Virus record (IMG/VR): IMGVR_UViG_3300037112_000094 | Span: 51,220 to 71,219 of that record | Direction: 5' to 3' (one strand) | From: an uncultured virus (IMG/VR IMGVR_UViG_3300037112_000094) | Lineage: Duplodnaviria > Heunggongvirae > Uroviricota > Caudoviricetes | Length of the DNA stretch: 20,000 nucleotides | Part shown: positions 394-18,372 of the stretch, piece by piece | Layout: each line of letters starts with the position of its first letter | Position numbering within the stretch: the first letter of the stretch is position 1 | Translations under genes and position numbers: made by a program | The notes under the pieces: generated by a model | The model's input: the letters and a program-made list of their open reading frames with translations, nothing else | The model's database searches: none | What the model was told of the DNA's origin: nothing

Positions 394-1051
394 ATCGAAT
401 CTCCTCCCACTTCTTTCCGCGCCATGAATCGTACTGGCATTTTCTGGAACAGAATTTCGATCCTGAAGCGTGACATTTTGGACGATAAAACTTAGCTTTA
501 CAAAATCTGCATTCGAGGTAAACTCCCGATCTCTGGCGAGGAATCATGATCATTCCTGCAAGATGTGGGTGCTCTTTCGCGTGGCAATCGGCGCAGATGA
601 TTTCTATGTTTTCCTCAGCGTCTCGCTTTTCTGGGAAATCGGCGTATGGAAGCCTATGATGTCCCTGAAGATTCGCGGTCGATCCACATCTTTCGCAGGC
701 TTTTCTCTTGCGCTTCACGCGAGCGATTGCGGTCCTGCTCTTCCACTCGCGATCAGAAATTCCGCCCTTCCAGTTCGGATTGTTATCTTTCGATAGCATC
801 ATTCCGACCGCGACCCGTGAACACTTTCTCGTGCAGTAGCGACGATCTTTCGATACTGATTTGTAGCATTCAAAATCGACCCCGCACACGTAGCACACAA
901 GCCAAACCTTCGGCCTCGGATGGTGAGTCTTAAAGGGTGCAGCGCAACTCCTGGAGCAGTATTTTTCGCCACGGCGCGGCTTCCCACAGGCGAGGCAGGT
1001 TCCCTTGAAGCGACGCTTTGAATACGGAAACGCCAATGTTCCTCCAAACAA
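383..1051 (-). CDS. HNH homing endonuclease with multiple Zn-ribbon repeats (likely true start TTG at 1036)
   Basis: CERCG...LQGHHR...ENIEIICADCHAKEH HNH core, NNPNWKGG motif, three CxxC...[YF]C[ST]RxC repeats. GGAGG lies just upstream of TTG 1036. Confidence 0.85.
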   Translation of the reverse strand: MFGGTLAFPYSKRRFKGTCLACGKPRRGEKYCSRSCAAPFKTHHPRPKVWLVCYVCGVDFECYKSVSKDRRYCTRKCSRVAVGMMLSKDNNPNWKGGISDREWKSRTAIARVKRKRKACERCGSTANLQGHHRLPYADFPEKRDAEENIEIICADCHAKEHPHLAGMIMIPRQRSGVYLECRFCKAKFYRPKCHASGSKFCSRKCQYDSWRGKKWEEIRYAA

Positions 1052-1124
1052 AAACGGCCCCGACTTTTACGTCGGAGCCGCCGCTTGTTTCCCGAGCCGG
1101 TCAGGATGGGATCGGGAAGGCACG
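1046..1124 (-). promoter_or_regulatory. Structured leader with intrinsic terminator, copy 1
   Basis: Minus strand reads CGTGCC, TTCCCGA..TCGGGAA hairpin, AACAAGCGG, then CGGCTCCGAC-gtaaaa-GTCGGGGCCG-TTTTTGTTT. The 14-mer at 1076-1089 is identical to 18292-18305. Confidence 0.7.
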
Positions 1125-1137
1125 TTGCTCACTGCTG

Positions 1138-1166
1138 TTTATACCGCAATCGAGAGCCGCTGTCAC
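1138..1166 (-). promoter_or_regulatory. Putative sigma70-type promoter
   Basis: GTGACA (1166-1161), 17 nt spacer, TATAAA (1143-1138), directly upstream of leader copy 1. The -10 lacks the conserved final T. Confidence 0.45.
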
Positions 1167-1172
1167 TGAAAA

Positions 1173-1352
1173 TCAGCGCTTTCGCGATACTCTCTTCTTC
1201 TGCGCTTTCTTGCGCTTCTTGCCGTGCTGAACCTTGTGGCATCCTTTGCCTTTGATGCAAACCTTTTCGGCGTGCGTGGGAATGCCGTGGATGTGCGTGT
1301 ACGCGCGGCTCTCGCGGTAGGCTTCCTCGCTCTTGAACGTCTCGGTTGGCAT
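1173..1352 (-). CDS. Small basic protein, 59 aa (MPTETFKSEEAYRESRAYTHIHGIPTHAEKVCIKGKGCHKVQHGKKRKKAQKKRVSRKR)
   Basis: Manual translation. ATG is 1 nt after the endolysin stop, with GGAG upstream. Basic tail ends KKRVSRKR. Not in the ORF track, which shows another frame. Confidence 0.75.
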   Translation of the reverse strand: MPTETFKSEEAYRESRAYTHIHGIPTHAEKVCIKGKGCHKVQHGKKRKKAQKKRVSRKR

Positions 1353-1353
1353 C

Positions 1354-1806
1354 CTACTTCTCCGTGAAAAATAACTGCCCAGCGATCTCGCACCGGTAAG
1401 TCACGACCGCAGGATTCCAGCCCTCCGGGAACGGCACCACGGTGCCACTTGGAAGTGTGAAGGTTGCCGTCGTCCGGATGCCTTTTGGGTTGTAGTAGAG
1501 GGTGCTGCCACCTGTGATATCTGGAAGCACCCCTGCGGAGATGTCAGCGGCCAGCGACAGGGAGGTGATGAAGGCACTCCAGTCTGGAGCGTTGAGCGCG
1601 TTTGGGCCGATTCCAAGTTCCTTATCGCCGGGTGTGGTCATGCTCGAAAACTGCTCAGGCCGCAACGCCTCCTCGTAGACGCTGCTCTTCGCTTTGGCCG
1701 CGCGGTTCACGAGCACGTTCAGGATCGAATGCATCCCTTGCGCGCCACCGCCGCGCGCTTCCTTCCATGCACAGATAGCACCTACGACCTGATCCTGAAG
1801 AGTCAT
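1354..1806 (-). CDS. Cell wall hydrolase, SleB/Hydrolase_2 family, probable endolysin
   Basis: WKEARG (catalytic Glu), NVLVNR, QFSSM, DITGGSTLYY and C-terminal IAGQLFF match the SleB-like pattern. Confidence 0.85.
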   Translation of the reverse strand: MTLQDQVVGAICAWKEARGGGAQGMHSILNVLVNRAAKAKSSVYEEALRPEQFSSMTTPGDKELGIGPNALNAPDWSAFITSLSLAADISAGVLPDITGGSTLYYNPKGIRTTATFTLPSGTVVPFPEGWNPAVVTYRCEIAGQLFFTEK

Positions 1807-1813
1807 CCGACAC

Positions 1814-2413
1814 CTACTTTATCCCTGCTGTCGCGGCCTTGATCATCGCCCTGTGCAAAATCATCCTTCGAAGCGCCATGCTCTTCGTTGCCTGCGGGTT
1901 GAAATAGTACGCGAGCCCGCTCGTCATCTCGATTGCGTTATTCGATCCGACACGCATGAAGTGTATGTCGAGCGTGGACCACTGAAGATTCGGAGTGATC
2001 CGATAGGACGCTCCACCGCCGAAGAGTAAAGCGATTTGGTTATTCGCTGTGAATGTCGCCAGTCCGCCCGCTCCTTGGATGAAGATTTGGAACGAATCTG
2101 CGGGCAGGTTTGTCTTCGCGAATAACGCCGAGAGATCGGGCGAGTACCGAACACCTCCGAAGTATGCGTTGAATGGCGACGCCGTAATTTCGTGGCCTTC
2201 TACTGAAAGGCTGTTCCCTTTCTGTACTCCCCAATCGATCAGGTCAAGTGATTCTGTTGTATGCGTGGCGGCTGTCCATGACTTCTGGTAGTCGAGAGCC
2301 GTAGCCTCGGCGGCACTCGAAAAAACGAGGCCGGATTGCGCGCTGGCGACTGTCGAAATTGCCAGCAACGCGATCCCGGCCCAAAGCATCTTGGTCATCA
2401 ATCCTTGTTTCAT
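1814..2413 (-). CDS. Exported protein, probable small outer-membrane beta-barrel
   Basis: Sec signal ending ASA|Q. Alternating amphipathic strands (YFGGVRY, IFIQGAGG, FGGGASYRI, GLAYYF) followed by a basic C-terminal extension. Confidence 0.6.
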   Translation of the reverse strand: MKQGLMTKMLWAGIALLAISTVASAQSGLVFSSAAEATALDYQKSWTAATHTTESLDLIDWGVQKGNSLSVEGHEITASPFNAYFGGVRYSPDLSALFAKTNLPADSFQIFIQGAGGLATFTANNQIALLFGGGASYRITPNLQWSTLDIHFMRVGSNNAIEMTSGLAYYFNPQATKSMALRRMILHRAMIKAATAGIK

Positions 2414-2427
2414 CGTTCGCCTCGATC

Positions 2428-3036
2428 TTATTGCAATTGGAATTTCTGGTATCCGTGAAGCCCGAGAACCGCGTTGAAGCTGGACTTCAAAGTGGCCGCA
2501 TTAGGCGGTTCGACCTTGCCTGTCGCGACCGCTGCCACAGCCCTCGCCGTCACCACTGCTGGCGCTGCGCCGGGAATGAGCGCCTGAATGCTGGACAGAG
2601 TCAAGATGGCCGTTCCCAAAGCCGCTACGATCACGGCGACGATGGATGGCGATACTGATCCAGCCGGGAGAGTTGCGATGACGCCCTGTACGTCGCTCTG
2701 TACCTTCGTCAGTGCCGCAATCAGCGCGTTTAGGTTGCCCTGCGACTTGTTCGCGTTGTAGGCGTTGGCCGCGTCTTGGAACGCGTTGAGCGAGGCAATC
2801 GCAACGTTCATGGCCGTCGTGAGAGCCGCTGCGACGCTTGCAGGCAGGCCCCCATTGCTGGTTGCCTCAGCGATCACCGACACCACGCTGTTCACGATGT
2901 TGATTACGACCGGTATATCGTCGATGACCGTCGTGATCCACGCTGTCGAGCATCCAGTCGTCAGCAATACGGTCGGTGCCGCCACCGCGACCGCTGCACC
3001 GGTTCCTGAGAGTTGCAAAAACATTCTACGATTCAT
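2428..3036 (-). CDS. Putative Tat-exported lipoprotein, helical and Ala/Val-rich (start re-assigned to ATG 3036)
   Basis: GAGGAG RBS before ATG 3036. MNRRMFL twin-arginine motif, hydrophobic h-region and lipobox-like LTTG|C. Confidence 0.7.
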   Translation of the reverse strand: MNRRMFLQLSGTGAAVAVAAPTVLLTTGCSTAWITTVIDDIPVVINIVNSVVSVIAEATSNGGLPASVAAALTTAMNVAIASLNAFQDAANAYNANKSQGNLNALIAALTKVQSDVQGVIATLPAGSVSPSIVAVIVAALGTAILTLSSIQALIPGAAPAVVTARAVAAVATGKVEPPNAATLKSSFNAVLGLHGYQKFQLQ

Positions 3037-3044
3037 AATGCTCC

Positions 3045-4382
3045 TCAAAAAATCTGTGAAAGTTTCTTCCCGATTGGCACACCCAGACCAGTGCATGGGC
3101 TCGGCTTCGGCCCAGCTTCGTACTGGCCGTTACCGCCCGTGGTAATGAGCGTGAAAGAGGGTGGATGATCCCAAAGCCTTGTCGAGATGAATCCAACCTT
3201 CCTACCCCACGCCGCGAACAGGCCAGCGTACAACGGTGCCACGGCGCTCGTTCCTCCAACAATCTGTTGCTGCCCCCCTTGAAAAATTAGGTACCCAGTA
3301 TCGGGATCGGCGTTGGCGGCAAGATCGGGGACCATGCGGCCCAGACCTTTGGGCGCTGGAGGGATGTCTACTTGCCAAGCCTGAGCCGGGAAAATGGTGG
3401 AATATCCGCCGCCAGTTCCAGAGCCGTCCGTTTTGCCGGGGTTGTTATTCCAAACCGTCTCGCTGCTTGCTGTCTTCGACGTGCCGCCGCATCCCACCAC
3501 GTGCGGGCATGACGCTGGGCAATCCACGTTGGCGGCATTGCGACCGCCGTCGCTTGAATCATTGTCTCCGGAAGCGGCAAACACTACCATCCCGGCATCG
3601 GTCGCGGCCTTTGCTGCAGCATCCATTTGCTTGCAAGCTTCCGATCCCCATGCGGCTTCGTCAGCGCCCCACGAGATAGAGCAAACGGCGCAGCCATCCT
3701 TGGAAGCCTTGGCGACCGCCGAAGCAATGTCCTGTGACCAGTACACGCGAATGGTGGCTGGCTTGCCGGTGGCCACGAAGTAGGCGGCACCCGCGACCTC
3801 AATATCGAGAGCAACCTCCATATCATTGTCGTTACCCGGAGAATTCTTCGTTCCATCGACCGACACATCTGTCAGAGATGGCGATGGCTGGTCGATGGAC
3901 TGGAAGTAGGCGTCAATGTCCGATTGCACCCACCCGCCGCCAAGCTCCACGATCCCGATGGTTCCTCCCCCTTTCAGACCGGTCGGCCACTCGTAGGCAG
4001 CGCAAAGGTCATCAACTTCCCACGCACCAGACGCGGTCGGGACTCCAGCGGCAAGGCGCTTCACGTATGGATGACAGTTGAATCGCGGCGACAGCGGCTT
4101 CACGTTCGTCTGGTTCAACGGCGGCGCGAGTGGAGGCGGCGTGGTGCCCTTCCCGTAGCCGAGCACGCCAGCCAAGACGGAGAAAAACCCAGCGGCGCTT
4201 ATGAGGTATGGTTGGTACTTGGCCGGAATCACCGAACTTGGAAGCGCCGCTAAAATGGCAGCGACGCCACCTATGATCCCTGTGATTGTCAGCAAGGTAT
4301 TTGGTTTGGTTCCAAATGCGCGTTCAAGGATGCTGGCGACCAATTGAGCAAGTAGCTGAATCCAGTTTCCCATCTCTTTCAC
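3045..4382 (-). CDS. S53 (sedolisin/kumamolisin-like) peptidase with N-terminal two-TM holin-like segment
   Basis: IGIVELGGG, EVALDIE (Glu/Asp), SISWG, FAASGD (oxyanion Asp), GRMVPDLAANADP, GGTSAVAP (catalytic Ser), CTGLGVP. The first ~80 aa are hydrophobic. Confidence 0.9.
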   Translation of the reverse strand: MKEMGNWIQLLAQLVASILERAFGTKPNTLLTITGIIGGVAAILAALPSSVIPAKYQPYLISAAGFFSVLAGVLGYGKGTTPPPLAPPLNQTNVKPLSPRFNCHPYVKRLAAGVPTASGAWEVDDLCAAYEWPTGLKGGGTIGIVELGGGWVQSDIDAYFQSIDQPSPSLTDVSVDGTKNSPGNDNDMEVALDIEVAGAAYFVATGKPATIRVYWSQDIASAVAKASKDGCAVCSISWGADEAAWGSEACKQMDAAAKAATDAGMVVFAASGDNDSSDGGRNAANVDCPASCPHVVGCGGTSKTASSETVWNNNPGKTDGSGTGGGYSTIFPAQAWQVDIPPAPKGLGRMVPDLAANADPDTGYLIFQGGQQQIVGGTSAVAPLYAGLFAAWGRKVGFISTRLWDHPPSFTLITTGGNGQYEAGPKPSPCTGLGVPIGKKLSQIF

Positions 4383-4387
4383 CTTTC

Positions 4388-4726
4388 CTAACGGTCGGAA
4401 AACCCATCGTGCTTCGAAGGACTCGGAAGCGGAATCCTGCTTGTATGCTCATCATGCAGCAGTGTGATCACGATATTCTGCTCCTCGTTGATCGTATAAA
4501 TCTGGTCCGAGAGCGCCGCATGTTGCTCCATGATTGCCTTCTCTCCGCTGTCGAGGCGATCCAGATGGTCGTTTATAGTGGTGAGCGTGGCTGACATATA
4601 CCACGCTCCCAGAGCAGTCGTGGTGAGGGCTGAAACGAGCGCGGATATGCCCCACTTCATCCACTCAGCCATTCCTTCGCTATTTGTTTTAGGTTCTGCC
4701 ACGATTGCCTCGCTTGTCGTGCCCAC
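4388..4726 (-). CDS. Single-TM protein with coiled-coil-like tail, lysis-associated or holin-like candidate
   Basis: Hydrophobic WGISALVSALTTTALGAWYM followed by heptad-like LTTINDHLDRLD...LSDQIYTI. Lies upstream of the lysis genes. Start uncertain. Confidence 0.55.
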   Translation of the reverse strand: MGTTSEAIVAEPKTNSEGMAEWMKWGISALVSALTTTALGAWYMSATLTTINDHLDRLDSGEKAIMEQHAALSDQIYTINEEQNIVITLLHDEHTSRIPLPSPSKHDGFSDR

Positions 4727-4767
4727 TTTCTTACCTTTCTCGAACGTAATTATAGATCGCGTTCAAC

Positions 4768-5304: not shown

Positions 5305-5315
5305 AGAACTCCTCC

Positions 5316-5696: not shown

Positions 5697-8600
5697 TCAG
5701 ATGACGCTCGTGCTAAGCAGATTTATCTCTGCAATGGTCCCTAATCCGCTATAGAAAGCAATCCCCCCAAAATCAATTGTGCCGACTGTCTGAGTTCCTA
5801 TCGTCTGATAGGTAGCGCCTCCGTCAGTCGAAACCAGATATGAGAGAATCGTCCCTGAAACAGACAGCTTCAAATGAATACTTGATCCAAACCACTCCGC
5901 GCCCTGATAAACAACACTACTCACAAAAGATGGGGCAACCGATCCGGGGCAAGTGCTTGTACAGTTATATTCTCCGATTTGGAGCGTTGCTGTAGAGAGA
6001 GAGGCATTTCCCTGCTGCCAACTCAGTGACCACACTAACCCATTTGTGTTGTCGTGAATCCAGATTCCTCCATTGCAATTATTCGTGCCAACAGCGGCGC
6101 ACAGTTGCCTGAAATCAATATCGATAGAACTGCTCAATGAAATTTTCGACCAATAATTTGTAGTCGCCGCAGTAGAGCTAAGAACGACATTCCCGTTCGT
6201 TCCGTTTGTGCAAGTCGGCCCTGTGCCAATGAAAACCTGAGAAGCGCATATCACTGGTTTTGTCACAGCAAACATATCGGGGTCGTAGAATGTCGAGCCA
6301 ATTTCGATGTATGGCGGCGCGGCTACTACAGTTGATCCTCCTCCAGCAGCCGCCGTATAGCAAGGATTCGGGGTGCTTGCGGTCGTGTACTGCAAATTCT
6401 GCCCCGTCGTCGGTGTAAAGCCGGTGCAGAAAGGGACGCCATTCAGTTGGTTTGCGCTGACTGTCCCCGTGCCGCTCGGAGCTAAGCTGGCTCCCGAACC
6501 AACGGCCATCGCAGCACTCGTATTGGTCCCGCTGGAGATGGCAGAAAAAGCAGTCGTCGTGGTGGCCGCAACGCCAACCTGCGCAGCCATAACCACAGTT
6601 GGCGTGCCAACGACGGTCCCGGTCGTGACAACTTGAATATCCAGCAAATCGAGCGATGCCGTCGTAAAGCTGTGCGTCGTGTCTGAGCATGAAGTAGCCG
6701 ATGCTCCGCTGATCGTACAGGTGAGCGTTTGGCTCGAAGCATTCTTGCGCCAAGTGAAAGCAATCGAATTTCCAACGCCCGGGGCGGTGCTCAATTGCAC
6801 CGTCATGTTCTGAATGGTGACCGCTGCCGGTGAATCGATATCCACATTCGTCTCGGTCGCACTCGACAAGCCGCCGCCGCCGATAGGGAAGTACAACGTC
6901 CCGGTAAAAGTCAGCGCCGGTCCCGAATAGGTGACGATGCCTGCGCCCGTCCCAGCCGCCGCAATAGCCGCCTGCACGAAAGCCGTGGTAGCAAGCTGCG
7001 TCGTGTTCGTGCCCCCCGTCGCAGTAGGGGCCGCTGGCGTTCCTGTGAAGGTCGGACTGGCCTTCGGAGCCAGCGATGAGAGGAGCGTGCTGCTATCCTG
7101 CTGTGTGCCAGCCGTGTCCACGTAGGTCACTACATCTCCTGCCACAGTTGCAGAAGTTGGTCCCGATGCCAGCCCCGCTCCAGTACCCGCAATAGCCTTG
7201 CTGCTGGTGATCGTGCTGGATGACCCAGCGACACCAACCTGAGTCGCTGTCATGCCCGAGAGGCCCGAGCTACCGCTAGCACAGCCGCTGGTTGTCAACG
7301 CGCCGCCCGTTCCGTGTGGGCATATGGGGCTTGTCGAAGGAGAAAGCCCTTGAATGACAACATTTCCGTTGCCATCAATCGATAAACCGTTTGCCCCATA
7401 CAATCCGAAAATCGCATAGTTAGAAGCTGAGCCCGCACCGGCATAATAAAATTGCATTCTCAACACATCGTTCGTTGCATTATCTCTTCCGAGGTCTTCC
7501 TTTATCGAATAGCCCGTTGGCATATTCGGGCCTAACACGCCAAAAATGGGGTAGTTAAAAGCCGTGCTCGAACTGCTAGGCTCCTGCACCGCCGCCGTAG
7601 AAGGATAATGATTTCCGCTGTTTTGACTAGTGCTGTTGAAGGTACTTGGAGAATCTGAATTGACAGTCAGGTGTTGGTAACCGAATAGCGTTCCCAAAGA
7701 CATGATCTGCGAGCCGAGAGTGCTTCCCGATGAAGCGGAAAACCACTGATAGGTGTAAACAGAATCGTAAGTGGGAATCTGCATGAAGCCGTTACCTACC
7801 CCCGCGACTCCGGGTGCCGAACCAAAATAGTCGCTCCGCTTGTCCAGTGGGTCACTCACGCCGGAGAGCAGCACATTCGCAATCTTTGCCGCTGCCAGGT
7901 TCACGCCGCCTGGGCCGAATCCGCCGTTCCCGGCAACGAGCGATGAGTTTCCCGGATCGTTGACCACACGAGCCACATCAACGAAACCATCCCAATACTG
8001 GCCGCTGGCCTGATTCGCCGCGCTCTTCCCTTGAAGAGGCAGCCATTGTTCCAGCGCGATCAGGGTCTGGTAGCCGGAGGAGCAGATTCCGAGGCCGGTC
8101 TGCCCGAGGTTGACGGCGTTCGTGCTCCAGACCACCACAGAGCTGCTGTCGGCATGTACCTGCGCCCATAGGGAGTTAAGCGCCGCCTCGATCGTTGCAG
8201 CCGAAGTGCAACCGTTCGCAAAGGCATCGTTTTCTAACTGCCCGAAGATGAAGTAGGTCGGCTGGCCGGTCACTGCCTCGCTCAGTGGGTGCAGGATTGT
8301 CGAGTAATAGGTGTTGAGCGCCTGCTCGGTGACAGGATTCGGGATCACCACATAGGGCGTCAGTTTGCCACTGAGCCCGGCCAGATTCGCCGTGTTGAAA
8401 GGCAGGTTATATGTGGCCTTGGCTGCGACGCCGCAGGTTGAGGCGCAGGTGCCGCTGCTGGCAAAACTAAACTCAAACTGCGTAGAACTTAAGCCGGATG
8501 AGAGTACCTTGAAAAGCGTGTATCCGGTCGAATAGCTGATGTCGGTCGGTGCTGAGAAGGTCGAAGTCCACGCGCTCGAGAAACGCATGTTGACCCAATC

Positions 8601-9695: not shown

Positions 9696-9696
9696 G

Positions 9697-9759
9697 TTAC
9701 CTCCTTACGGTGAGTGTTACCAAAACAGCGTTCCCGATAGACTTCATCCACGCGGCCAA
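9697..9759 (-). pseudogene. Stranded duplicate of the 3' end of gene 10055..10465
   Basis: Translates LAAWMKSIGNAVLVTLTVRR*, against VAGWMASLTNAVNVTLMVTR* at the end of 10055..10465. Shared DNA words gtggatg, gtaacact and aggtaaca. Confidence 0.75.
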
Positions 9760-9763
9760 TGTT

Positions 9764-10039
9764 CTAACTCAGGCCGATGTAGGTCAAGAAGATGGTGCAA
9801 TTGTTGACATTACCCGGAGCAGAAGAGAACGTCACAACGACAATTGTTCCGGAAATGCTGACGGAACTGCCGCCAATACCGAGATCGTTTACCACCGCTA
9901 CTGGAGGGTTGTCATTGAATACAAGATTGAATGGAGCCTTCTTGAGATCGAACGACATCGATGTGCTTGTGCCATCTCCAGCTATGTTCATGGTTATCGA
10001 GTTAACCGTTGATGTCACATTGTTAATGCCAATAGCCAT
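9764..10039 (-). CDS. Small beta-rich protein, probably structural
   Basis: Strong AGGAGG RBS. GDG...F...SISGTIVVVTFSSAP pattern recalls phage fibre modules. Confidence 0.7.
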   Translation of the reverse strand: MAIGINNVTSTVNSITMNIAGDGTSTSMSFDLKKAPFNLVFNDNPPVAVVNDLGIGGSSVSISGTIVVVTFSSAPGNVNNCTIFLTYIGLS

Positions 10040-10054
10040 TTGATTCCTCCTGTG

Positions 10055-10465
10055 TTACCTAGTTACCATCAGTGTTACGTTAACTGCATTGGTTAAGCTG
10101 GCCATCCACCCCGCGACATACTTTGGCCATAGATTGCTCGCCATGTCGTAGCGCCAGACAAATCCATTTGTTCCGGTTTGGCCAGTAGACCCCGTGCTCT
10201 TGATGCTTGCCAGTTGGATGTAGTTCGGTGCCGCGTCAATGTTGGCACCTAAAATATCTACTTCGAAGGTTCCGGGATTTGCTGAGAAGATCACTTCAAA
10301 CGAAGCTCCCCACGGGTAGAAAGCATTGTCGAGACGTTCCAGCAAAAACCCCTGACTCAGCGAACCCGGAAAGGTCCCCGCAGGAACCGTTTCCACGTTC
10401 CACAAGAATCCTTGGCGGTTGACACGAAGAAGCGTTGCTAAACCGGGTCCGGGATATGTGGGCAC
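10055..10465 (-). CDS. Hypothetical virion protein, 136 aa
   Basis: AAGGAGG RBS before GTG 10465. Beta-rich composition and position within the structural operon. Confidence 0.75.
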   Translation of the reverse strand: MPTYPGPGLATLLRVNRQGFLWNVETVPAGTFPGSLSQGFLLERLDNAFYPWGASFEVIFSANPGTFEVDILGANIDAAPNYIQLASIKSTGSTGQTGTNGFVWRYDMASNLWPKYVAGWMASLTNAVNVTLMVTR

Positions 10466-10536
10466 TAAAAACCTCCTTCAAGCTGCGGTAGAATGGAAAA
10501 GCGGTCGAACACCGCAATTCCATTCGAGGTGGAATC

Positions 10537-11097
10537 ATGGCCAAGCGTCCCGCCAAATACTGCGTCCAGCGAGAGCCTGTTGTCCAACCGCACGATCAGT
10601 CTATCAAAATAATCGCGCTGACTAGAGGCAAGACAACCGTTGTCGATGCAACCGACTACGAAAGGTTGATGATAAAAAACTGGGTTGCTCTCTGGGACGA
10701 TCACACGAAATGCTTTTATGCCAGAGGCACGCATGGTGGAACGGGAATGCACCGATACATTCTTGGCATAACCGATCCAAATGTGCAGGTAGACCACTGG
10801 GATGGCGATACTCTTAACAACCGCAGAATCAATCTTCGTGTGACCAATCAAAACGGCAACCGCCAAAATCGCGGCGTCTACAAGAACACAAACAGCGGCC
10901 ACGCTGGAGTTTCTTGGCGCGAACGAGATCAGGTCTGGATTGTGTACATAAACACTAATGGTAAACGCACTTATCTTGGACAGTATAAAGAAGATGACAA
11001 ACAAAAAGCCATAGATCGGCGCGTCGAGGCCGAACGCGAACAGCATGGCGAATTTGCTTTTGCGAATCGTCATAAAATTACCACATGCCCACGTTAG
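10537..11097 (+). CDS. HNH endonuclease with C-terminal AP2 domain
   Basis: IALTRGKTTVVD..DYE, MHRYIL...VDHWDGDTLNNRRINLR, NTNSGHAGVSW...W.VYI..NGKRTYLGQY, HGEFA. GAGGTGG RBS, TAGAAT upstream. Confidence 0.92.
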   Translation: MAKRPAKYCVQREPVVQPHDQSIKIIALTRGKTTVVDATDYERLMIKNWVALWDDHTKCFYARGTHGGTGMHRYILGITDPNVQVDHWDGDTLNNRRINLRVTNQNGNRQNRGVYKNTNSGHAGVSWRERDQVWIVYINTNGKRTYLGQYKEDDKQKAIDRRVEAEREQHGEFAFANRHKITTCPR

Positions 11098-12322
11098 CGC
11101 TGCCGTTTGTGTTCGTGAACGGCTCGCCTGCGTTGAACGGTACGCTCATTCCGGCCTTTGTGAAGTACAACTCCATCAAGTGCCGGTCCATAATCCTGAT
11201 CTGTCTCAGCAAGTCCTTGTACTCCTCGTGATGAGCCTGAACAAGGAATTGCCAGTTTGCTCCGGAGCCGCGCTCCATGTCGTCGCCCTTCTGAGATTCC
11301 TTCCACAGCGACACCATCTCGTAAGCTCTCTCCTTCACAAGCTCTTCGGTGAGAGGGTACGGAAGAGTATCGGTAGGAGCCGTTAGCGCAGGCCAATTGG
11401 CTTGGCACGCGAACGTGTAAGGCAACTGGGTAATCGGATGCGGCCACAACTCGAAAAGCATCTGGCCGAGCGTCGGGCTCCCCGGCCTGTTGTCGATCTG
11501 AAACGGAACAACGTACTCAGGCTGGTCGAATATCTCGCGCTGTGGGTCCTCTTCCGAAAGATCAATCTGCGTGTAATCCCACCAGTTCATCGCCTCGTCG
11601 TTGGTTGTGTCCCTAATGTTGAACCAGCGCTTAAAGTTCGGCGGCGCTGGATAGTAGGCTTGGTAGATCGCATACGGGCCGTTGAATTGCGGAGGCTCCA
11701 TCCAAGGCCGGTCAATCGTGATCGTCGCGATCAGCGTGACCGAGAACGTGGCCGGAGTTCCTCCCTCGGCGAACGTGATCGATGGGGTCTGGTAGTTGCT
11801 TCCCACAGCATTGACAATCGTCGGAAGCGTAACCGCCCCGCTCGCGTCGACGGTGATGATGACGGTCGCTGCCGCGCCGCCGCCGCTAAGGTCTGTGATC
11901 GGCACGGTGTAGGTTCCCGGCGTCTGTCCCGAGCCCGGAGTGAGCGTCGTGACGTATGCGACCGTCCCGTTGTTCCCCAAAGCGATGATGTTGTAGAGCG
12001 AGTAGTTTGGGCACCTGATCTGCTGCTGGGTGAGGAACGGAGGATAGGGGATTGGCGCGACCCACGCCATCGTCGCGGCCACGTCGGCGGTGATGGTTGT
12101 GCTGAATGGATTGACCGTGATCGTGCCGGGGCTCAGGAACGAGTTTTGGGAGGTTGGTCCCCCGAGAAGATTAGCGGTTAACCATCCTCCGGTGATGCAC
12201 TGGAAGGAAAAAACGTTCTCATTTTGTATTTTCTGAAATGCCTCGTTAATCCTTGTCGCGGCAAGCCCGCGATTCATTCCCGGCACTCCAAGCATCTCTT
12301 GCACCATGTTCACGAAGGCCAT
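11078..12322 (-). CDS. Putative head-tail adaptor/connector protein with inserted beta modules
   Basis: N-terminal helical MVQEML...TRINEAFQKI and C-terminal FELWPHP...YTF...LTAPTDTLP...ELVKERA match the usual layout of podovirus adaptor proteins. GGAGG RBS. Located after the capsid genes. Confidence 0.6.
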   Translation of the reverse strand: MAFVNMVQEMLGVPGMNRGLAATRINEAFQKIQNENVFSFQCITGGWLTANLLGGPTSQNSFLSPGTITVNPFSTTITADVAATMAWVAPIPYPPFLTQQQIRCPNYSLYNIIALGNNGTVAYVTTLTPGSGQTPGTYTVPITDLSGGGAAATVIITVDASGAVTLPTIVNAVGSNYQTPSITFAEGGTPATFSVTLIATITIDRPWMEPPQFNGPYAIYQAYYPAPPNFKRWFNIRDTTNDEAMNWWDYTQIDLSEEDPQREIFDQPEYVVPFQIDNRPGSPTLGQMLFELWPHPITQLPYTFACQANWPALTAPTDTLPYPLTEELVKERAYEMVSLWKESQKGDDMERGSGANWQFLVQAHHEEYKDLLRQIRIMDRHLMELYFTKAGMSVPFNAGEPFTNTNGSANVGMW

Positions 12323-12337
12323 TTAACTGCCTCCGAT

Positions 12338-12350
12338 CATGGTAAAATCA
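12338..12350 (+). promoter_or_regulatory. Putative extended -10 promoter for the HNH-AP2 gene, antisense to the operon
   Basis: TG-G-TAAAAT about 50 nt upstream of ATG 12398. Confidence 0.4.
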
Positions 12351-12397
12351 GAAATCAGTGCGGCTCTCTGCTGCACAATCTCTTTCACGGAGAGACT

Positions 12398-12937
12398 ATG
12401 GAGCCCAGAGTGAAACGTCACCCTGTTGAGCAGCCGCTCGATCAGTCTATCAAACTCATTCCCCTCACAAAAGGTAAAACGGCCAGAGTTGATGCCTCTG
12501 AGTACGAGAGAATTAGCGCTAATAATTGGATGGCGACTTGGAATAAGTACACACGTTCCTACTATGCCCGCCGCTACAGCAAAGTCAAGGATGGACCGCC
12601 AAGACGTATGATCGCCATGCAGAACGAAGTCATGAGCAATGGAAAGATAAATGACCATGCAGACCGCAATACTCTGAATAACGTGAAGAGCAATTTGCGT
12701 CCATCCACAGTTTCCCAAAATGGCGGGAACTGTGAGAAGAGAAAACACAATACGTCTGGATATAAAGGTGTGGTTTGGAACAATCGATGGAGGGCTCAGC
12801 TTCTCGTTAATGGGAAGAAATACCATGCTGGGTATTTTGATGATCCGATTGACGCAGCGCGAGCCTACGACCGCAAGGCCATCGAATTGTTCGGCGACTT
12901 TGCTTGCACCAATTTTCCGCGCTCCGATTACGACTGA
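12398..12937 (+). CDS. HNH endonuclease with C-terminal AP2 domain (start re-assigned to ATG 12398)
   Basis: GGAG RBS. The N-terminus aligns with paralog 10537 (QPLDQSIKLIPLTKGK vs QPHDQSIKIIALTRGK). DHADRNTLNNVKSNLR, NTSGYKGV, GYFDDPIDAARAYDRKAIELFGDFACTNF. Confidence 0.92.
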   Translation: MEPRVKRHPVEQPLDQSIKLIPLTKGKTARVDASEYERISANNWMATWNKYTRSYYARRYSKVKDGPPRRMIAMQNEVMSNGKINDHADRNTLNNVKSNLRPSTVSQNGGNCEKRKHNTSGYKGVVWNNRWRAQLLVNGKKYHAGYFDDPIDAARAYDRKAIELFGDFACTNFPRSDYD

Positions 12938-12956
12938 CACTCCCCACACTCCACTC

Positions 12957-13193
12957 CTACTTCCCCGCCACACGCTTTTTGGCTTTCCAAATCTTGTCGC
13001 CCGCCTTGCCGCGCGGGAATTTCTTGATAGATTTGAGTTGCCCACGCTTGACGCGTTTGTTGTTCGCTCGTACCGTCTCGTTGTAGCGAGTATTTCGCGG
13101 CCCGATCTTCTCCAAGAAGCGATCATCCTTGCCTGCTGGAGGCGGGATTCTGTCCTTTGGAGCCTTCGGAAGAATGCGTCCAGTGGTCGCCAT
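12957..13193 (-). CDS. Small basic protein, 78 aa (MATTGRILPK...KIWKAKKRVAGK)
   Basis: ATG 13193 lies 4 nt after the stop of 13198..13353. K/R-rich, ends KKRVAGK. Confidence 0.75.
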   Translation of the reverse strand: MATTGRILPKAPKDRIPPPAGKDDRFLEKIGPRNTRYNETVRANNKRVKRGQLKSIKKFPRGKAGDKIWKAKKRVAGK

Positions 13194-13197
13194 GTGC

Positions 13198-13353
13198 CTA
13201 TTTCCCCGAAACACGCTTCTTGCGCGAAGTTGTCTTGCCGTTCCCGCTTTTCCGGCTCATGCGGCCTTTCGGGAACACGACATCTGGTCTGCCAAGCGAC
13301 TTGGTGCCCGCGCCGATAAGCAGGTGCTTCGAACTTGCCTTGGGCTTCGCCAT
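13198..13353 (-). CDS. Small basic protein, 51 aa (MAKPKASSKHLLIGAGTKSLGRPDVVFPKGRMSRKSGNGKTTSRKKRVSGK)
   Basis: Manual translation. GGAG-ccgaaa-ATG. Fills the gap between neighbours exactly and ends KKRVSGK. Not in the ORF track. Confidence 0.8.
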   Translation of the reverse strand: MAKPKASSKHLLIGAGTKSLGRPDVVFPKGRMSRKSGNGKTTSRKKRVSGK

Positions 13354-13366
13354 TTTCGGCTCCGGC

Positions 13367-13531
13367 TTACGTCAGCAGGGTCTTGTGCGAACCCTTCCTG
13401 TGCTTCTTGCCGCCCTTAGCCTTCGCGACCGTCAGCTTCAGGTTCCCCTTCTTGTGCGCGTTCGTGGAAACCGCGTGCTTCGCGTAACGATGCTCGACGC
13501 CCTTGCGATTGCGAATCTTGATCTTCTTCAT
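13367..13531 (-). CDS. Small basic protein, 54 aa (MKKIKIRNRKGVEHRYAKHAVSTNAHKKGNLKLTVAKAKGGKKHRKGSHKTLLT)
   Basis: Manual translation. AAGGAGAAGAGG RBS, KAKGGK motif. Not in the ORF track. Confidence 0.8.
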   Translation of the reverse strand: MKKIKIRNRKGVEHRYAKHAVSTNAHKKGNLKLTVAKAKGGKKHRKGSHKTLLT

Positions 13532-13548
13532 GTCCTCTTCTCCTTAGT

Positions 13549-13626
13549 AAAAACGCCTCCCAACGGCGATTGGGTTCCGCAGGGAGGCGCTTGATAGTCT
13601 GCAACCGGGAGGGGTCTAGCAGACCT
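13549..13626 (-). promoter_or_regulatory. Structured leader with intrinsic terminator, copy 3
   Basis: Minus strand reads GGTCTGC-(tagacccctcccggtt)-GCAGACT, ATCAAG, then CGCCTCCC...GGGAGGCG-TTTTT, immediately before the RBS of 13367..13531. Confidence 0.65.
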
Positions 13627-13639
13627 TGTGAAAAGTCGT

Positions 13640-13978
13640 TTACGGACCGCCGACAACACCCAACTGAACGACTTCCGCCGCAAGATTGGCTGCTGATGCG
13701 GTGGTCAACGCTCCAGTGGCTTTGTTGAAAGCGTACCAGTAGAGAATCCAGCTTCCACCTTTGCCGGATACCGAAATCTGAGGGAACACAATGTAGTTCC
13801 CGCTCACGGAAATGCAGGGGCCGAGGACAGAATCGACGAAGAACGGCGTGAAGTTAACCGACAATGGATCACCATTCGTGGCGTTGTAGGACGCCGGTCC
13901 GGTCCCCGTTCCCACATAAACCTGCCGGTTCCCGATCCAGTTCGGGTAATAGACTGGAGTAAGCGTATTGAGAATCAT
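13640..13978 (-). CDS. Small virion protein, decoration-like
   Basis: GAGGAAG RBS. Beta-rich, GPASY..GD motif, lies downstream of the capsid genes. Confidence 0.65.
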   Translation of the reverse strand: MILNTLTPVYYPNWIGNRQVYVGTGTGPASYNATNGDPLSVNFTPFFVDSVLGPCISVSGNYIVFPQISVSGKGGSWILYWYAFNKATGALTTASAANLAAEVVQLGVVGGP

Positions 13979-14003
13979 CGTTTCTTCCTCTTCTCCCCTG
14001 CAT

Positions 14004-14855
14004 TTAGTCTTGGAAGATTGGCGTTGTCATCTGAATCTTGAACGGAGTGTGAGCCAGCGGTGCAGTCACCGGATCGATGACGATACCGAGATTGAGAATG
14101 CTGTAGCTCGCCGATGACGCGACCATCTCGCCTGCCGAACTCGTGGACGGAAGAGCGTTCTGGCTTTGCGCCTGCGTGTCTCCAGAGGCTGCGAGAACCG
14201 TCGCCACACCGCTCTCCTGAACGAAGCCGTAATTGCCCGGAGTGATGGAGTTCAGGAAGATCACAGGATGAACCGGACCGATGCCAGCGTTTGTCCCTGA
14301 AGGGGTCAACGCGATGTCCGCGCTCGTGACCACGTTCTGGCCGAGACCCAACTGTGCGACCACGGTACCCGGAGTTCCGCCCGTCGCCAAGGTGAAAGTC
14401 GGCGGGGAGACGTATCCGAATCCTGCGTTGAGCACAGAGACAGAAATCGCTGTGGGAGAAGTGACGATGACTTGGATGATTGCTCCCTGTCCACCGCCGC
14501 TTCCAACGGTCGCCGCTACTTGGTAGGTGCCGACCGTCTGGCCGGTTCCTTGGGTCAGGACGATGACCGACTTGACCGTCGATCCAGAGCGCACATAGCC
14601 GACTGTTCCCGTCTTCACGTTTGCGGCGGTCGCGCCCGAGTCAACTTGCACGAAACGGTAGCGCCCATTGTAGAGAATGCCGTTCGTCGTGTAGGCGGTT
14701 GCAGCTTCCTCGTTGGTCAGGTCGAAGTAATCGCCGAGATTCAGCCCGCCGCCTTCGTATGGGAATCCCGTCATGGGATCGGTCATGCCGGAGGGCGACG
14801 AGTTGTTCACGTTGTTCAGAGCAAGCCATGTAGGAAGTGCTGGCTGAAATGGCAT
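14004..14855 (-). CDS. Capsid decoration/cement-like protein with an inserted GxGY module
   Basis: Directly follows the major capsid gene, AAGGAG RBS. GRYRFVQ...ITPGNYGFVQESGVATV pattern is typical of cement proteins. Confidence 0.6.
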   Translation of the reverse strand: MPFQPALPTWLALNNVNNSSPSGMTDPMTGFPYEGGGLNLGDYFDLTNEEAATAYTTNGILYNGRYRFVQVDSGATAANVKTGTVGYVRSGSTVKSVIVLTQGTGQTVGTYQVAATVGSGGGQGAIIQVIVTSPTAISVSVLNAGFGYVSPPTFTLATGGTPGTVVAQLGLGQNVVTSADIALTPSGTNAGIGPVHPVIFLNSITPGNYGFVQESGVATVLAASGDTQAQSQNALPSTSSAGEMVASSASYSILNLGIVIDPVTAPLAHTPFKIQMTTPIFQD

Positions 14856-14909
14856 TTTGTTTCTCCTTGACTACTTCGTTCCGTCAATCAAAAACTGCTT
14901 CGCTCAGTC

Positions 14910-16190
14910 TTAGCCGATGGCGGTGAAGCCGAAGGCATATGCGTTCTGACGTGGTTGGTTACAGTACAGGTTCGTTGCCAACCGCATGAAGATCGTGTCG
15001 ACGCTCACGTTGTTCCACTGGCTCGTCCTGCGCACGCCGAAGTTCCATCCCGGCTTGTCCGTGGTCCTGAGCTTGAACGTGCTCGGCGTCAGGAAGTAGA
15101 CGGCCTCGGACGGCTGGATGATCGAGTTCGATGGCAAACCAGAGTTCGTCGGCGACAGAAGCGAAGGTGCGCCTGTGGTGCTGAAGAACTGCGGAGTCGT
15201 GTAAGCAATCGTCGTGGTGTTTGATCCCACGCCGTCGACCAAGGACGTGTTGCCGGAAGCCCCTGCGTTGCCGCTGAGCGGGATGTAGTACTGCGCTGTA
15301 GCGGATGGTGCGAGGGGATCGGAGTAAATCTGCGTCCCGTTGAATTCGAGCGCGTCCCACGTGATGTCGTGCTTCGTGTTCGAAATATCGCGCCGGTATG
15401 CATCGAGCGCAATCGCGATGGCCTTGAAGCCGAAGACGTTCGTGATGCCCAACTTCGGCTGTCCGCCCGTGACCTTGCACTGCGACCAAAGCTGGATCAA
15501 CGAACCGAAGTTGATCTGGCCGGGGTTGCTCGTTGACGGCGCTGCCGCCGTTCCGGTCGTAACCTGCTGGCCGAGGTAGAGCGGCGTCGTGTTGATCGCA
15601 ACGCCAACCGCGCCGTTACGAGCCTGCTGGCCGTAAGAGGTGTAGCGGTTGCCGTACAGCGACGTGTCGATGCCGTTGTTGAGGGCCTCGTCCAAGCCGT
15701 TCGACACCTTGTAGCGGTTGTCCTGAACGGTCGATGAAGATTGCTGCCCGTGGCGGAACGAGTCCATTTCGAGCATGGTGTTGATCTGCATCACGAGAGC
15801 TTCCATGAAGATCGCATACAGATCGAAAATGCGCGAGGGACCGGAGTTGATGACGCCGCCCGTGCCGGAGCCGTCGTCCATTTCCCAGTCGTCCATCGGG
15901 AACCAAGACGCGTACCCCTTCTCGTAGAACTTCAGCTTGTCGGTGATCTGCTGGCGCGTTACCGTGATCGTCTGACCCGGATTGACGCCTGCTCCCTGCG
16001 GACGACCGTAGAGGAAGGGCTCGGTCATGCCAGCGCCGCCAAGGTACGGATCGGCTACTCCCGCACGGCGTAGCTCTTCGAGGAACGGAGTTCCGACGAA
16101 GAAGTTATTCCAGACTACTTCCTTGCGGACGCTCTCCAAGTTCGAAGAATCAATTTCGTTGAAGAGAGGATCGGTCGGTGTCGTTGGCAT
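14910..16190 (-). CDS. Major capsid protein (HK97-fold inferred)
   Basis: 426 aa after the scaffold, strong C/G third-position bias. NNFFVGTPFLEELR...GGAGMTEPFLYG, LEFNGTQIYSD, VYFLTP..FKL and NLYCNQPRQN resemble podovirus capsid proteins. Confidence 0.8.
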   Translation of the reverse strand: MPTTPTDPLFNEIDSSNLESVRKEVVWNNFFVGTPFLEELRRAGVADPYLGGAGMTEPFLYGRPQGAGVNPGQTITVTRQQITDKLKFYEKGYASWFPMDDWEMDDGSGTGGVINSGPSRIFDLYAIFMEALVMQINTMLEMDSFRHGQQSSSTVQDNRYKVSNGLDEALNNGIDTSLYGNRYTSYGQQARNGAVGVAINTTPLYLGQQVTTGTAAAPSTSNPGQINFGSLIQLWSQCKVTGGQPKLGITNVFGFKAIAIALDAYRRDISNTKHDITWDALEFNGTQIYSDPLAPSATAQYYIPLSGNAGASGNTSLVDGVGSNTTTIAYTTPQFFSTTGAPSLLSPTNSGLPSNSIIQPSEAVYFLTPSTFKLRTTDKPGWNFGVRRTSQWNNVSVDTIFMRLATNLYCNQPRQNAYAFGFTAIG

Positions 16191-16236
16191 TTTGGTTTCC
16201 TTTTGGCTTGTTAGGCCGTTATTTCAATCGAACTTC

Positions 16237-17244
16237 TTACGCTACTGCTTGCTCGCGCTCTTCGACAGCCTTGTGGATGTTGTTGAGCGTCAACTCTCTG
16301 CGCTGTTGTTGGGTCAACTTCGTCGGATCGGGCCGCTCGCCAGCACTCGTCGCACGCCGTAAATCGGCGAACTTCGATGATCCCGGAGGCAACTTCACAT
16401 CGCCATTGCTTCCAGCTTGTTCGGCGCGGAGCCGTTCCTTCGCGTTGAACTCGTCCTGAAGTTTCTGAAGCTCCAGCTTGTGCGCTTCGTCCTTGGCCGC
16501 TGTCGCCGTCGCCGCGACCTGATCGTCGTGGGCCTTGGCCGCTGCTTGGCGTGCCGCCTCTTCCTTCTCGGCGAACTTGAACGTCCTCGACGCGTACTCC
16601 ATCGGGCTCAGTTTTAAAGCCGTCGCCTGCGTGATGAGTTCGCTCGGGGCCATTGGAAGCGGTGCGCCGCCGTAGAGCGACTGGTACTTCCACTGGATGT
16701 TCAGAAGTTCGTTCATGCCGTCACCGACGCGGCTGACTACCACGTTCGGGTCGACAAACTGAGGAGTGCCGGGTGTCGGCGGACTGGCAGGGTTCTTTGG
16801 GTCCGGGGTCGGGGCAACGAAGGTCGGCGCGCTTGACGGATCGATCTTGAACTCCTTCAGGTAGCCTTCTCTCTGTGTCTTATAGAACGCCGCTTCGGCT
16901 GCTGCGTCCGTGGCCTTCTTCGTCAACTCGTTGCGTTCCTTCTCCCACTGCGCGATGCCGGGATTGTAGGTGTTGTGCCAAAATTCGTCGACGCTGCGCT
17001 TGGAAAGTTCTGCCGCGTCCTGTGCGGCCTTTGCCGCCGCCGCCGAATCTTCAGCGGCTTTGCGATCAGCTTCGGCCTTTGCCGCCGCCGCCGTCGCTTC
17101 TTGCTCTTTCTGAATCGCGGTCGCCTCTGCTTGAGATGCCGTGGTCAGAACGGTATTGAGTCCGTTGACAGCTTTCGAATCAAGAGCGTCTATCTGCTCC
17201 TGCGTCCAGCCACTTTGTAAAAGAACTTGTCCTAAAGTCTTCAT
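16237..17244 (-). CDS. Capsid scaffolding protein (ATG 17244, alternative TTG 17250)
   Basis: Ala/Glu/Lys-rich coiled-coil segments with a Pro-rich linker, immediately upstream of the capsid gene. GGGAG RBS. Confidence 0.65.
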   Translation of the reverse strand: MKTLGQVLLQSGWTQEQIDALDSKAVNGLNTVLTTASQAEATAIQKEQEATAAAAKAEADRKAAEDSAAAAKAAQDAAELSKRSVDEFWHNTYNPGIAQWEKERNELTKKATDAAAEAAFYKTQREGYLKEFKIDPSSAPTFVAPTPDPKNPASPPTPGTPQFVDPNVVVSRVGDGMNELLNIQWKYQSLYGGAPLPMAPSELITQATALKLSPMEYASRTFKFAEKEEAARQAAAKAHDDQVAATATAAKDEAHKLELQKLQDEFNAKERLRAEQAGSNGDVKLPPGSSKFADLRRATSAGERPDPTKLTQQQRRELTLNNIHKAVEEREQAVA

Positions 17245-17261
17245 AGTCAATATCTCCCGGT

Positions 17262-17759
17262 TTATTGAATTGTTGGCTGTTCCCGCAGGTCCTTCCGACG
17301 AGAAGTGGGTGTTTTGAGCATTGAGAGTTGATCTCTCAGTTCCAACCGATGCTCGTAATTCTTTGGATCGTGGCCCTTGATTCCCGGCCTAAAAACCAAT
17401 CTTTGGTGAGCCAACCCAATCTCTGCCTGCTCGCGCTTGATAACAAAAAAATTAAGGCAATTTGTCAATATCGAAGCTGCGAGTGCGGCTGAGACCTGCC
17501 ATGCATAAGATTTCGCCCAGTTTTGTCCGCCGCGATCTACTAAATAAATCGCTCCTCCAAATCTCTCGCGGAGCCACTCCGGGAGACGGGGATCGGAATT
17601 GTAGACGGCCAATTTCAGGTACGTTAGTCTTTTCCCGCTTGGGTGCATCTTGTTGTCGATCGTTATCGAACCTTCTCCGTCGATGAAGGCGGATAGTCTC
17701 GCCCAATCGATCTCGCTCGGCTCCCGTGTTGGCTTTGGAAATTTCACTTTCAGATTCAC
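17262..17759 (-). CDS. Free-standing single-motif LAGLIDADG homing endonuclease (I-CreI-like)
   Basis: WARLSAFIDGEGSI motif, ERFGG.IY, YAWQVS and FFVIKREQAEI (compare I-CreI FLKLKQKQANL). Confidence 0.88.
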   Translation of the reverse strand: MNLKVKFPKPTREPSEIDWARLSAFIDGEGSITIDNKMHPSGKRLTYLKLAVYNSDPRLPEWLRERFGGAIYLVDRGGQNWAKSYAWQVSAALAASILTNCLNFFVIKREQAEIGLAHQRLVFRPGIKGHDPKNYEHRLELRDQLSMLKTPTSRRKDLREQPTIQ

Positions 17760-17776
17760 CGTTTTCCCGGATTTTG

Positions 17777-18088
17777 TTAGCCCATCATTGGTTGCTGTGC
17801 GCTAGGCGTCGGCTGTGAAGGCGTGACCATCGCAGTCTGTGCTTCGCCTATCGCCTGAACGATCTTGTTCATCTGCGAAGCGATTTGCGGGTACGCTTGC
17901 GCGACTTGCTGCGCGACGTTACTCCAGTTGCCTAGCAGTTGTTGGATTTGATTGGCAGGATTTTGGGACGGTGCTCCTGACTGGGAGCCGCCTGACGATG
18001 GCACCTGAGCCGAAGCGCCGCCACCCGGTGAGGGTGGAGCGGCGCTCGGACTCTGCTGATCTGGCGAAGGCATTCCTGTCGTAGCCAT
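17777..18088 (-). CDS. Pro/Gln/Ser-rich hypothetical protein
   Basis: GGGAG upstream of ATG. Disordered termini around a two-helix core. Head-module position. Confidence 0.7.
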   Translation of the reverse strand: MATTGMPSPDQQSPSAAPPSPGGGASAQVPSSGGSQSGAPSQNPANQIQQLLGNWSNVAQQVAQAYPQIASQMNKIVQAIGEAQTAMVTPSQPTPSAQQPMMG

Positions 18089-18124
18089 GTGCTTCTAACT
18101 CCCGTTCAGAGGTTGGCTACCGGA

Positions 18125-18226
18125 TTAAGCCTTGAGGGCTGACTTCTTGCTGTGGCGCTTGCTGCGACGCTTGCCGCCCTTGGCCTTCTTGACGTGTGCT
18201 CCCTTGAGCGATACGCGATGCTTCAT
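18125..18226 (-). CDS. Very small basic protein, 33 aa (MKHRVSLKGAHVKKAKGGKRRSKRHSKKSALKA)
   Basis: Manual translation. AAAGGAG-aatcacc-ATG. 10 Lys, 4 Arg, 3 His and no acidic residue. Not in the ORF track. Confidence 0.8.
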   Translation of the reverse strand: MKHRVSLKGAHVKKAKGGKRRSKRHSKKSALKA

Positions 18227-18257
18227 GGTGATTCTCCTTTGTGGTTTGAAGTTGGTT

Positions 18258-18324
18258 GCAAACGAAAGCGGCGGCTGAGCCGTTTCGCTCTAGCCGCCGC
18301 TTGTTCCCAAAGGAGGGGGGCACG
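18258..18324 (-). promoter_or_regulatory. Structured leader with intrinsic terminator, copy 2
   Basis: CGTGCC-CCCCTCCTTTGGG-AAC, then a perfect 11-bp stem AAGCGGCGGCT/AGCCGCCGCTT (18302-18292 with 18276-18266) followed by TCGTTT. Confidence 0.72.
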
Positions 18325-18343
18325 CGCTATGATTCAATTCCGT

Positions 18344-18372
18344 AACTTAGACCCTATCCAAATTCTTGTCAA
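18344..18372 (-). promoter_or_regulatory. Sigma70-type promoter for the head genes
   Basis: TTGACA (18372-18367), 17 nt spacer, TAAGTT (18349-18344) in an AT-rich intergenic stretch. Confidence 0.65.

Follow-up and report, generated by a model that had tools for sequence, protein, structure and literature searches.

Two-state leader RNAs as candidate gates of virion genes in an uncultured phage with a likely Acidobacteriota host

The DNA analysed here (the window) is a stretch of 20,000 nucleotides, positions 51,220 to 71,219 of the IMG/VR record IMGVR_UViG_3300037112_000094, and forms the terminal part of a virus contig of 71,219 bases. On its minus strand it carries two short leaders, A (1046-1130) and C (18260-18329), whose transcripts are predicted to fold either into an antiterminator or into an intrinsic terminator, and a further site, B (13549-13629). 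The capsid protein of the window is 100% identical to that of a 121,714-base record rated 100% complete; the source of the window is an uncultured phage of about 120 kb, whose virion module it represents. The minus-strand genes code for a portal-like protein, a 79-aa protein, a scaffold-like protein, the major capsid protein (PHROG major head protein, E 2.8e-6), tail proteins, an endolysin and several homing endonucleases. Three relatives were found inside Acidobacteriota metagenome-assembled genomes, and the sole cultured matches are two Tunturiibacter phages, Tunturi 1 and Tunturi 2, with 25.6% capsid identity; in Tunturi 1 the terminase, the portal, the small genes and the capsid follow one another as they do here. 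The host is likely a member of the Acidobacteriota.

Leader A starts behind a promoter-like pair read from the sequence (1138-1166, minus strand), with the -35 element at 1166-1161, a 17-nt spacer and the -10 element at 1143-1138. The predicted antiterminator fold (1075-1130) consists of a long-range helix, P1, with its 5' strand at 1130-1120 and its 3' strand at 1084-1075, which encloses a variable hairpin, P2. The P1 3' strand is at the same time the 5' arm of the intrinsic terminator (1046-1082), the U tract of which lies at 1052-1046. A gene for an HNH endonuclease (383-1051, minus strand; Pfam HNH, E 1.3e-8) is inserted between the leader and an 88-aa Lys-rich gene (127-393, minus strand), the original first gene 3' of leader A. 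An earlier note on this DNA had supposed that the leader would directly precede this basic gene if the endonuclease were removed, and exactly this arrangement was found in three relatives (L042, L043 and L060).

Leader C is built in the same way on the minus strand, with a promoter-like pair at 18344-18372 (-35 at 18372-18367, 17-nt spacer, -10 at 18349-18344), an antiterminator fold at 18291-18329 (P1 5' strand 18329-18320, P1 3' strand 18300-18291) and an intrinsic terminator at 18260-18302 which overlaps the P1 3' strand. It is followed by a ribosome-binding site (RBS, 18239-18234) and a 33-aa Lys-rich gene, which together occupy 18125-18239 and open the scaffold and capsid block, and it is preceded by the conserved 79-aa gene (18435-18674, minus strand). 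The promoters with 17-nt spacing proposed earlier are thus readable at both leaders, and TTGAC recurs upstream of the C orthologs, but a consensus promoter scanner calls neither the A pair (1166-1138) nor the C pair (18372-18344). The exact 14-mer and the CGTGCC that had been reported as shared between the first two of three leader copies are real; they belong, however, to the first and the third, namely A (14-mer at 1076-1089) and C (18292-18305). The whole leaders at all three sites fold better than shuffled sequences (z -3.2, -4.0 and -4.7), which the first hairpins alone hardly do (z -1.2, -2.4 and -0.1), and the P1/P2 fold of C is the minimum free energy (MFE) structure of its 5' domain (-11.4 kcal/mol).

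The P2 loop of C resembles an anti-Shine-Dalgarno sequence (18315-18310). CUCCU occurs in P2 in 28 of 47 copies at the C position against 10 of 68 others (these copies are related, so that a Fisher p value overstates the difference), all 47 C-position copies have an AGGAG RBS within 70 bases, and RNAfold pairs the C loop with the RBS in the window. Because the P2 loop is predicted to pair with the RBS, translation of the first gene at C may be coupled to the fold.

Nine peat metagenome RNA runs on record hold part of 12900-18700, three of them at least half of its words. Within the four runs examined, contigs from the RNA libraries of two studies span terminator C (16643-18324 and 17527-18441), which is compatible with read-through, although DNA in the libraries is possible and such contigs carry neither transcript ends nor levels. 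Loose contig ends were seen at leader C (18277-18324) in runs X1 and X3; two of those in X3 resemble a relative's copy of leader C in the same library. Two RNA contigs end at 13536-13537, just past the terminator of site B, and nothing was concluded from them.

As the earlier note had advised, a covariance model was built and homologs were searched. Capsid-anchored searches contributed 32 loci, the best 80 of 150 (overlapping the 32), the best 80 of 152, and 3, and searches with the 88-aa basic protein 7 and 9 loci. An iterated hidden Markov model gave 107 distinct copies on the plus strand, of which 68 were left after clustering at 88% identity, and 16 divergent leaders were added by gene position; six rows were omitted (two with a very long P2, three without a terminator and one doubtful). 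The resulting MAFFT alignment has 78 rows, two of them swapped for the window's own copies, and was not fitted to the structure. With the covariance model A reaches 56.5 bits and C 55 bits; both were in its training set, so that these scores are not independent.

The consensus fold comprises three pairs, an internal loop, three pairs, a single bulge on the 3' side, two pairs, a CY / AAYMA loop, and P2. Over the 78 copies 84.2% of the P1 cells are paired, with changes on both sides at six of nine pairs, and the covariation of P1 is 0.336, against 0.158 in shuffled alignments and 0.03-0.11 in slid registers; the pair at columns 7-61, which forms in no more than 23 of the 78 copies, was later dropped. 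The central five P1 pairs are paired in 93.6% of cells and the base of P2 in 98.1%. The terminator, which uses the P1 3' strand as its 5' arm, is 89.8% paired, with double changes at seven of its ten pairs. Since P1 and the terminator use one common strand, the comparison shows them to be mutually exclusive predicted folds, both of which are conserved by covariation. One core type is common to 36 of the 78 rows, and several distinct, paired core types still occur; the most invariant bases are those paired in both folds. Conservation extends to unpaired bases, namely the CC side of the loop (63 and 60 of 78 rows) and four A positions (62-67 of 78).

The two folds differ in strength. The mean folding energy is -11.3 kcal/mol for the 5' domain against -22.5 kcal/mol for the terminator, which is about twice as stable; a terminator pair is present in the MFE structure of 62 of the 78 copies, and RNAalifold applied to the alignment returns the terminator only. 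Two points weigh against a two-state reading: when the 5' domain is folded by itself, its MFE structure contains the central P1 pair in only 38 of the 78 copies, and the pairing cells count sequences and not evolutionary events, uncorrected for phylogeny. In Rfam scans the best match in the window was Chloroflexi-1, whose 24.3 bits fall well short of the gathering score (80), and 60 kb of motif-rich relatives yielded no relevant match. The claim of an uncatalogued cis-regulatory RNA with the logic of an attenuator therefore stands: A and C are, with good comparative support, two members of a real, uncatalogued family of two-state leaders, and we consider it very probable that such a leader works as a two-state switch.

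The conserved layout is not the one first described, a C-rich hairpin followed by A[AT]CAAGCG. On the comparative evidence what is conserved is a bulged helix formed at long range, and its 3' strand doubles as the 5' arm of the terminator. The octamer does occur, six times in the window against 2.03 expected (4 of 200 shuffles reach six), but this hardly exceeds chance and makes it weak evidence by itself, and three of the six lie inside genes; CAAGCG, tried as the defining motif and expected to be conserved in homologs, varies with compensatory changes at A and C and, among 64 distinct regions at the B position, is found in one. A local ANTAR-like hairpin within the P1 3' strand was also tried and rejected (covariation 0.245 against 0.224 in shuffles).

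Site B, the remaining one of the three leaders that had been joined into one family, is present in the sequence as described, but the family covers A and C only. A hairpin with a GUC/GAC stem and a YCCCG loop (13611-13606) lies at 13597-13629 on the minus strand, directly after a stop codon, and is followed, without overlap, by an intrinsic terminator (13549-13591) and by three small Lys-rich genes (12957-13531) on the same strand. No promoter-like site was found at B, which begins right after the stop codon, and the covariance model of the family gave no match there, although the filters were switched off and E values as high as 5 were allowed. A YCCCG-type loop was detected in 53 of the 64 distinct B-position regions, anchored by gene position only, and 37 of the 64 have a GU..AC stem with four or more base pairs, the outer two stem pairs being demanded by the search pattern; the next two pairs beyond these show some compensation. 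Judged by this comparison, B, which lies where the capsid block ends, is a real, separate conserved element, and it is placed outside the A/C family because it lacks a model match, has another conserved hairpin and shows no overlap of P1 and terminator. Our guess would be a second protein-binding or pause site for the same terminator. In Tunturi 1 (L285:9290-9380) a GUC..GAC hairpin with a different loop stands before a terminator at the B position, which makes this phage a culturable model for B-type elements. The A/C covariance model has no match in Tunturi 1 (best 12.6 bits).

The distribution of the A/C family follows the virion genes. Of two complete relatives, G003, a 134-kb genome with terminal repeats, has eight strong copies and G004 seven, every one of them within the virion module and in the coding orientation; the phage of the window and G002 have two copies each, and G005 one. 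The copies are found ahead of the terminase and scaffold blocks, the capsid gene, tail genes and further virion genes, and several begin no more than 12 bases past the upstream stop codon. A census of 119 distinct copies, at loci that for the most part lie no further than 10 kb from the capsid gene, gave as the next gene a small basic open reading frame (ORF) in 80, the major capsid gene in 19, another ORF in 10 and none called in 10. Contrary to the earlier claim, the family is not restricted to basic-protein genes, because its copies also sit before capsid, tail and other virion genes. According to a loose pattern used without a shuffle control, 78 of the 119 copies have a promoter-like sequence upstream and 41 do not, and these 41 favour action in cis.

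Outside this phage group little was detected. In three assemblies of the host phylum all six strong matches lie on phage-bearing contigs. Of 150 further genomes of the phylum, in a shallow search with 31 candidates scored per genome, 11 gave weak matches of 24-28 bits, by eye mostly plain terminators or chance, and no clear host-chromosome copy was found in this sample. An exact 18-mer scan of viral contigs gave seven loci, two of them copies of this phage and the others without the fold, and a gapped-pattern scan gave 28 loci, of which seven are real and all belong to this phage group. One of the 11 weak matches, the one clear look-alike, is a divergent copy in a phage, with a portal-like gene on one side and basic, scaffold-like and capsid-like genes on the other; L248 (G070:C32), a much more distant phage, has the same gene order and a divergent leader copy. 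Three loci have the P1/P2 fold with no terminator hairpin after it (L101:19780-19835, L117:20815-20867 and L095:16005-16060), and these copies could be decoys or translational sites.

We lean, by a little, towards a model in which A and C gate the transcription of the late (virion) genes in cis and are opened by a phage-encoded RNA-binding factor. The nascent RNA would first form the weak, bulged P1, capped by the variable P2 and carrying the conserved CY / AAYMA internal loop. Once transcribed, the 3' arm of the terminator would pair with the P1 3' strand, displace P1 and stop transcription, so that the default state would be off. A factor bound to P1 would stabilise it, the terminator could not form, and the polymerase would read through. 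The factor is pictured as an RNA-binding protein of the phage that acts separately at each terminator, and the host-type promoters would thereby be silent until late infection.

Granted the switch, a phage-encoded protein is probably its reader. The 19-nt core is 87% identical between copies of the same genome (18 pairs) against 61% between same-position copies across clades (75 pairs), a comparison that is weakened by the assignment of the five clades by hand, partly from motif type. The likeness within the genome is higher in 11 of 12 genomes, while G162 opposes the trend (0.47 against 0.48). In a check free of clade labels the A and C cores of the window are 89% alike, whereas the C orthologs of the 10 relatives compared, with capsids at least 87% identical, have cores 63-84% alike. 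This core pattern suits a genome-encoded reader better than a metabolite.

Several further results count against a phage-encoded protein reader. Repeated duplication or gene conversion could also make paralogs alike. The antiterminator domain CAT_RBD (PF03123) was detected in none of five complete phage genomes, with the control positive in 4 of 14 and the search confined to phage-encoded proteins; an ANTAR search of five complete phage genomes was likewise empty, but its control was silent. Pfam searches of 86 and 18 selected ORFs, 104 in all, gave no antiterminator and no Q family. The 79-aa protein, tried as the reader and not supported, matches no Pfam family, gave a blank in the Atlas and does not follow the RNA core once phylogeny is accounted for (partial rho 0.15); its model has a mean predicted local distance difference test (pLDDT) of 89.7, but the best fold match has a Z of 4.1 and no viral match was obtained at E of 0.001 or less. 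A conserved 131-aa gene upstream of the first gate fared no better (pLDDT 66, best Z 2.5, no viral match). These missing fold matches do not exclude the 79-aa and 131-aa proteins as readers.

A rival explanation is a ligand-free rheostat, in which kinetic competition between P1 and the terminator would set a fixed read-through, or protect RNA ends, and in this way tune the stoichiometry of the virion proteins. Besides the unsuccessful search for a reader, the RNA-library contigs across terminator C agree with it, and so does the finding that the bases which vary least pair in one fold as well as in the other, a constraint that would slow their change without any ligand. We nevertheless regard a rheostat as unlikely: unpaired positions are conserved too, a terminator directly behind a promoter is easier to explain as regulated, and the paralogs retain a genome-specific core.

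Alternatively, the leaders might be ON riboswitches or be read by a host protein, so that a metabolite or the state of the host licenses virion production. ON riboswitches share the architecture of promoter, P1 competing and overlapping with the terminator, and conserved internal loop. Their pocket for a single small molecule is difficult to reconcile with a clade-specific core that drifts across clades yet is uniform within genomes, and neither an Rfam family match nor a clear host-chromosome copy was obtained, the context being phage only in what was searched; this explanation is improbable. The earlier note had raised a possible feedback from the basic proteins, in which case the small Lys/His-rich proteins would read their own leaders. 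A small basic ORF does follow the majority of the copies in the census, and basic peptides often bind bulged hairpins, but a census near the capsid gene favours just these positions, and in G003 basic genes follow only three of eight copies. Moreover, stabilisation of P1 would turn expression on, which makes this a positive feedback by products that lie behind the gate, and Tunturi 1 has basic genes at like positions without a family match; no positive evidence for feedback was obtained, and we hold basic-protein readers to be very unlikely. Least probable of all is a short promoter-to-terminator transcript of about 75-90 nt that acts in trans as a small RNA, possibly through its anti-Shine-Dalgarno-like loop, as the promoter-like patterns and the CUCCU loops at the C position might suggest, for promoter-less internal copies are common, the loop complements the leader's own RBS, present in all C copies, P2 varies in length and sequence, and formation of the terminator breaks the conserved helix.

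The gate model has its closest relatives among the bacterial antitermination systems. The ribonucleic antiterminator (RAT) of BglG, SacY and LicT, as presented in PMC3575810, is a weak hairpin with a variable apex and two asymmetric internal loops which overlaps the 5' arm of a terminator, and the bound protein blocks that terminator, as is predicted here. The A/C family has this feature of a hairpin that overlaps and excludes an intrinsic terminator. Its stem-loop pattern and P1-P2 domain are larger than the 29-nt RAT, the Rfam scans, in which no direct alignment to RAT sequences is involved, show no RAT-type match, the five phage genomes lack a CAT domain, and the copies, up to eight, serve phage virion genes and not sugar operons. 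With the ANTAR protein EutV of the eut locus (PMC3369931) the family shares sites that overlap several terminators dispersed in one locus, and its commonest 3' strand resembles the 13-nt ANTAR site minus two bases. The ANTAR target described there consists of two tandem hexaloop hairpins with A at position 1 and G at position 4; tandem hexaloop hairpins are absent here, and the local hairpin has a loop of 4 nt and no covariation above shuffles. For all its likeness in working, the family was classed with neither the RAT nor the ANTAR systems.

The logic of lambda Q, to which the leaders had first been compared, holds in one respect: at pR'/tR', and in the Bartonella gene transfer agent with the Q-like BrrG (10.1101/2024.11.20.624540), a terminator behind a host-type promoter holds the late genes off. 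Factors of the Q type load at a DNA site and act processively, whereas here an RNA fold is predicted at each terminator, promoter-less internal ones included. Non-processive action is favoured because the sites recur at internal terminators, and with a putative site at every terminator, antitermination that is local and non-processive is a better fit than the lambda Q mechanism. Literature searches gave no paper evidently describing the motif. The word 'phage' is absent from the main text of a 2025 review of RNA-binding antiterminators (PMC12591593), and the motif words are absent from four supplements of a study of candidate structured RNAs in viruses (PMC10690425), among whose candidates the motif may be; an earlier description is possible.

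Other features of the window and its relatives deserve mention. Four homing-endonuclease-like genes stand within 20 kb (10537-11097 and 12224-12937 on the plus strand, 17262-17759 and 383-1051 on the minus strand), two of which run antisense within the virion module, and a gene for a subtilase-family (S8) peptidase (3045-4382) lies in the lysis and virion block. Tiny Lys/His-rich genes are clustered at 12957-13531, 18125-18226, 127-393, 1173-1352 and upstream of position 126; they have no family match above threshold, their like positions are kept across the phage group and Tunturi 1, and they probably code for DNA-condensing core peptides. At G000:C1 (about 8600-19100) a region with few long ORFs looks like a transfer RNA cluster interspersed with HNH-like genes, and the large terminase-like gene of this phage (L231:9647-12586) exceeds the length of its counterparts in relatives and has a weak intein-domain match (E 0.006).

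The textbook late-gene switches of phages are new sigma factors, phage polymerases, promoter activators and processive antiterminators such as Q, and site-by-site RNA antitermination is known mainly from bacterial metabolic operons. As a more tentative extension of the gate model, a new family of RNA-binding antiterminators might set the timing of all virion genes in a large group of Acidobacteriota phages by opening up to eight dispersed terminators in turn, each separately, with the reader and its RNA drifting together and with B and the C loop adding further layers. If true, each phage lineage would hold a private key to its late genes. The gate itself, if true, would be a further way for phages of peat and soil to switch on their late genes, would point to a new RNA-binding protein and would supply small orthogonal terminator switches that lend themselves to direct tests in reporters.

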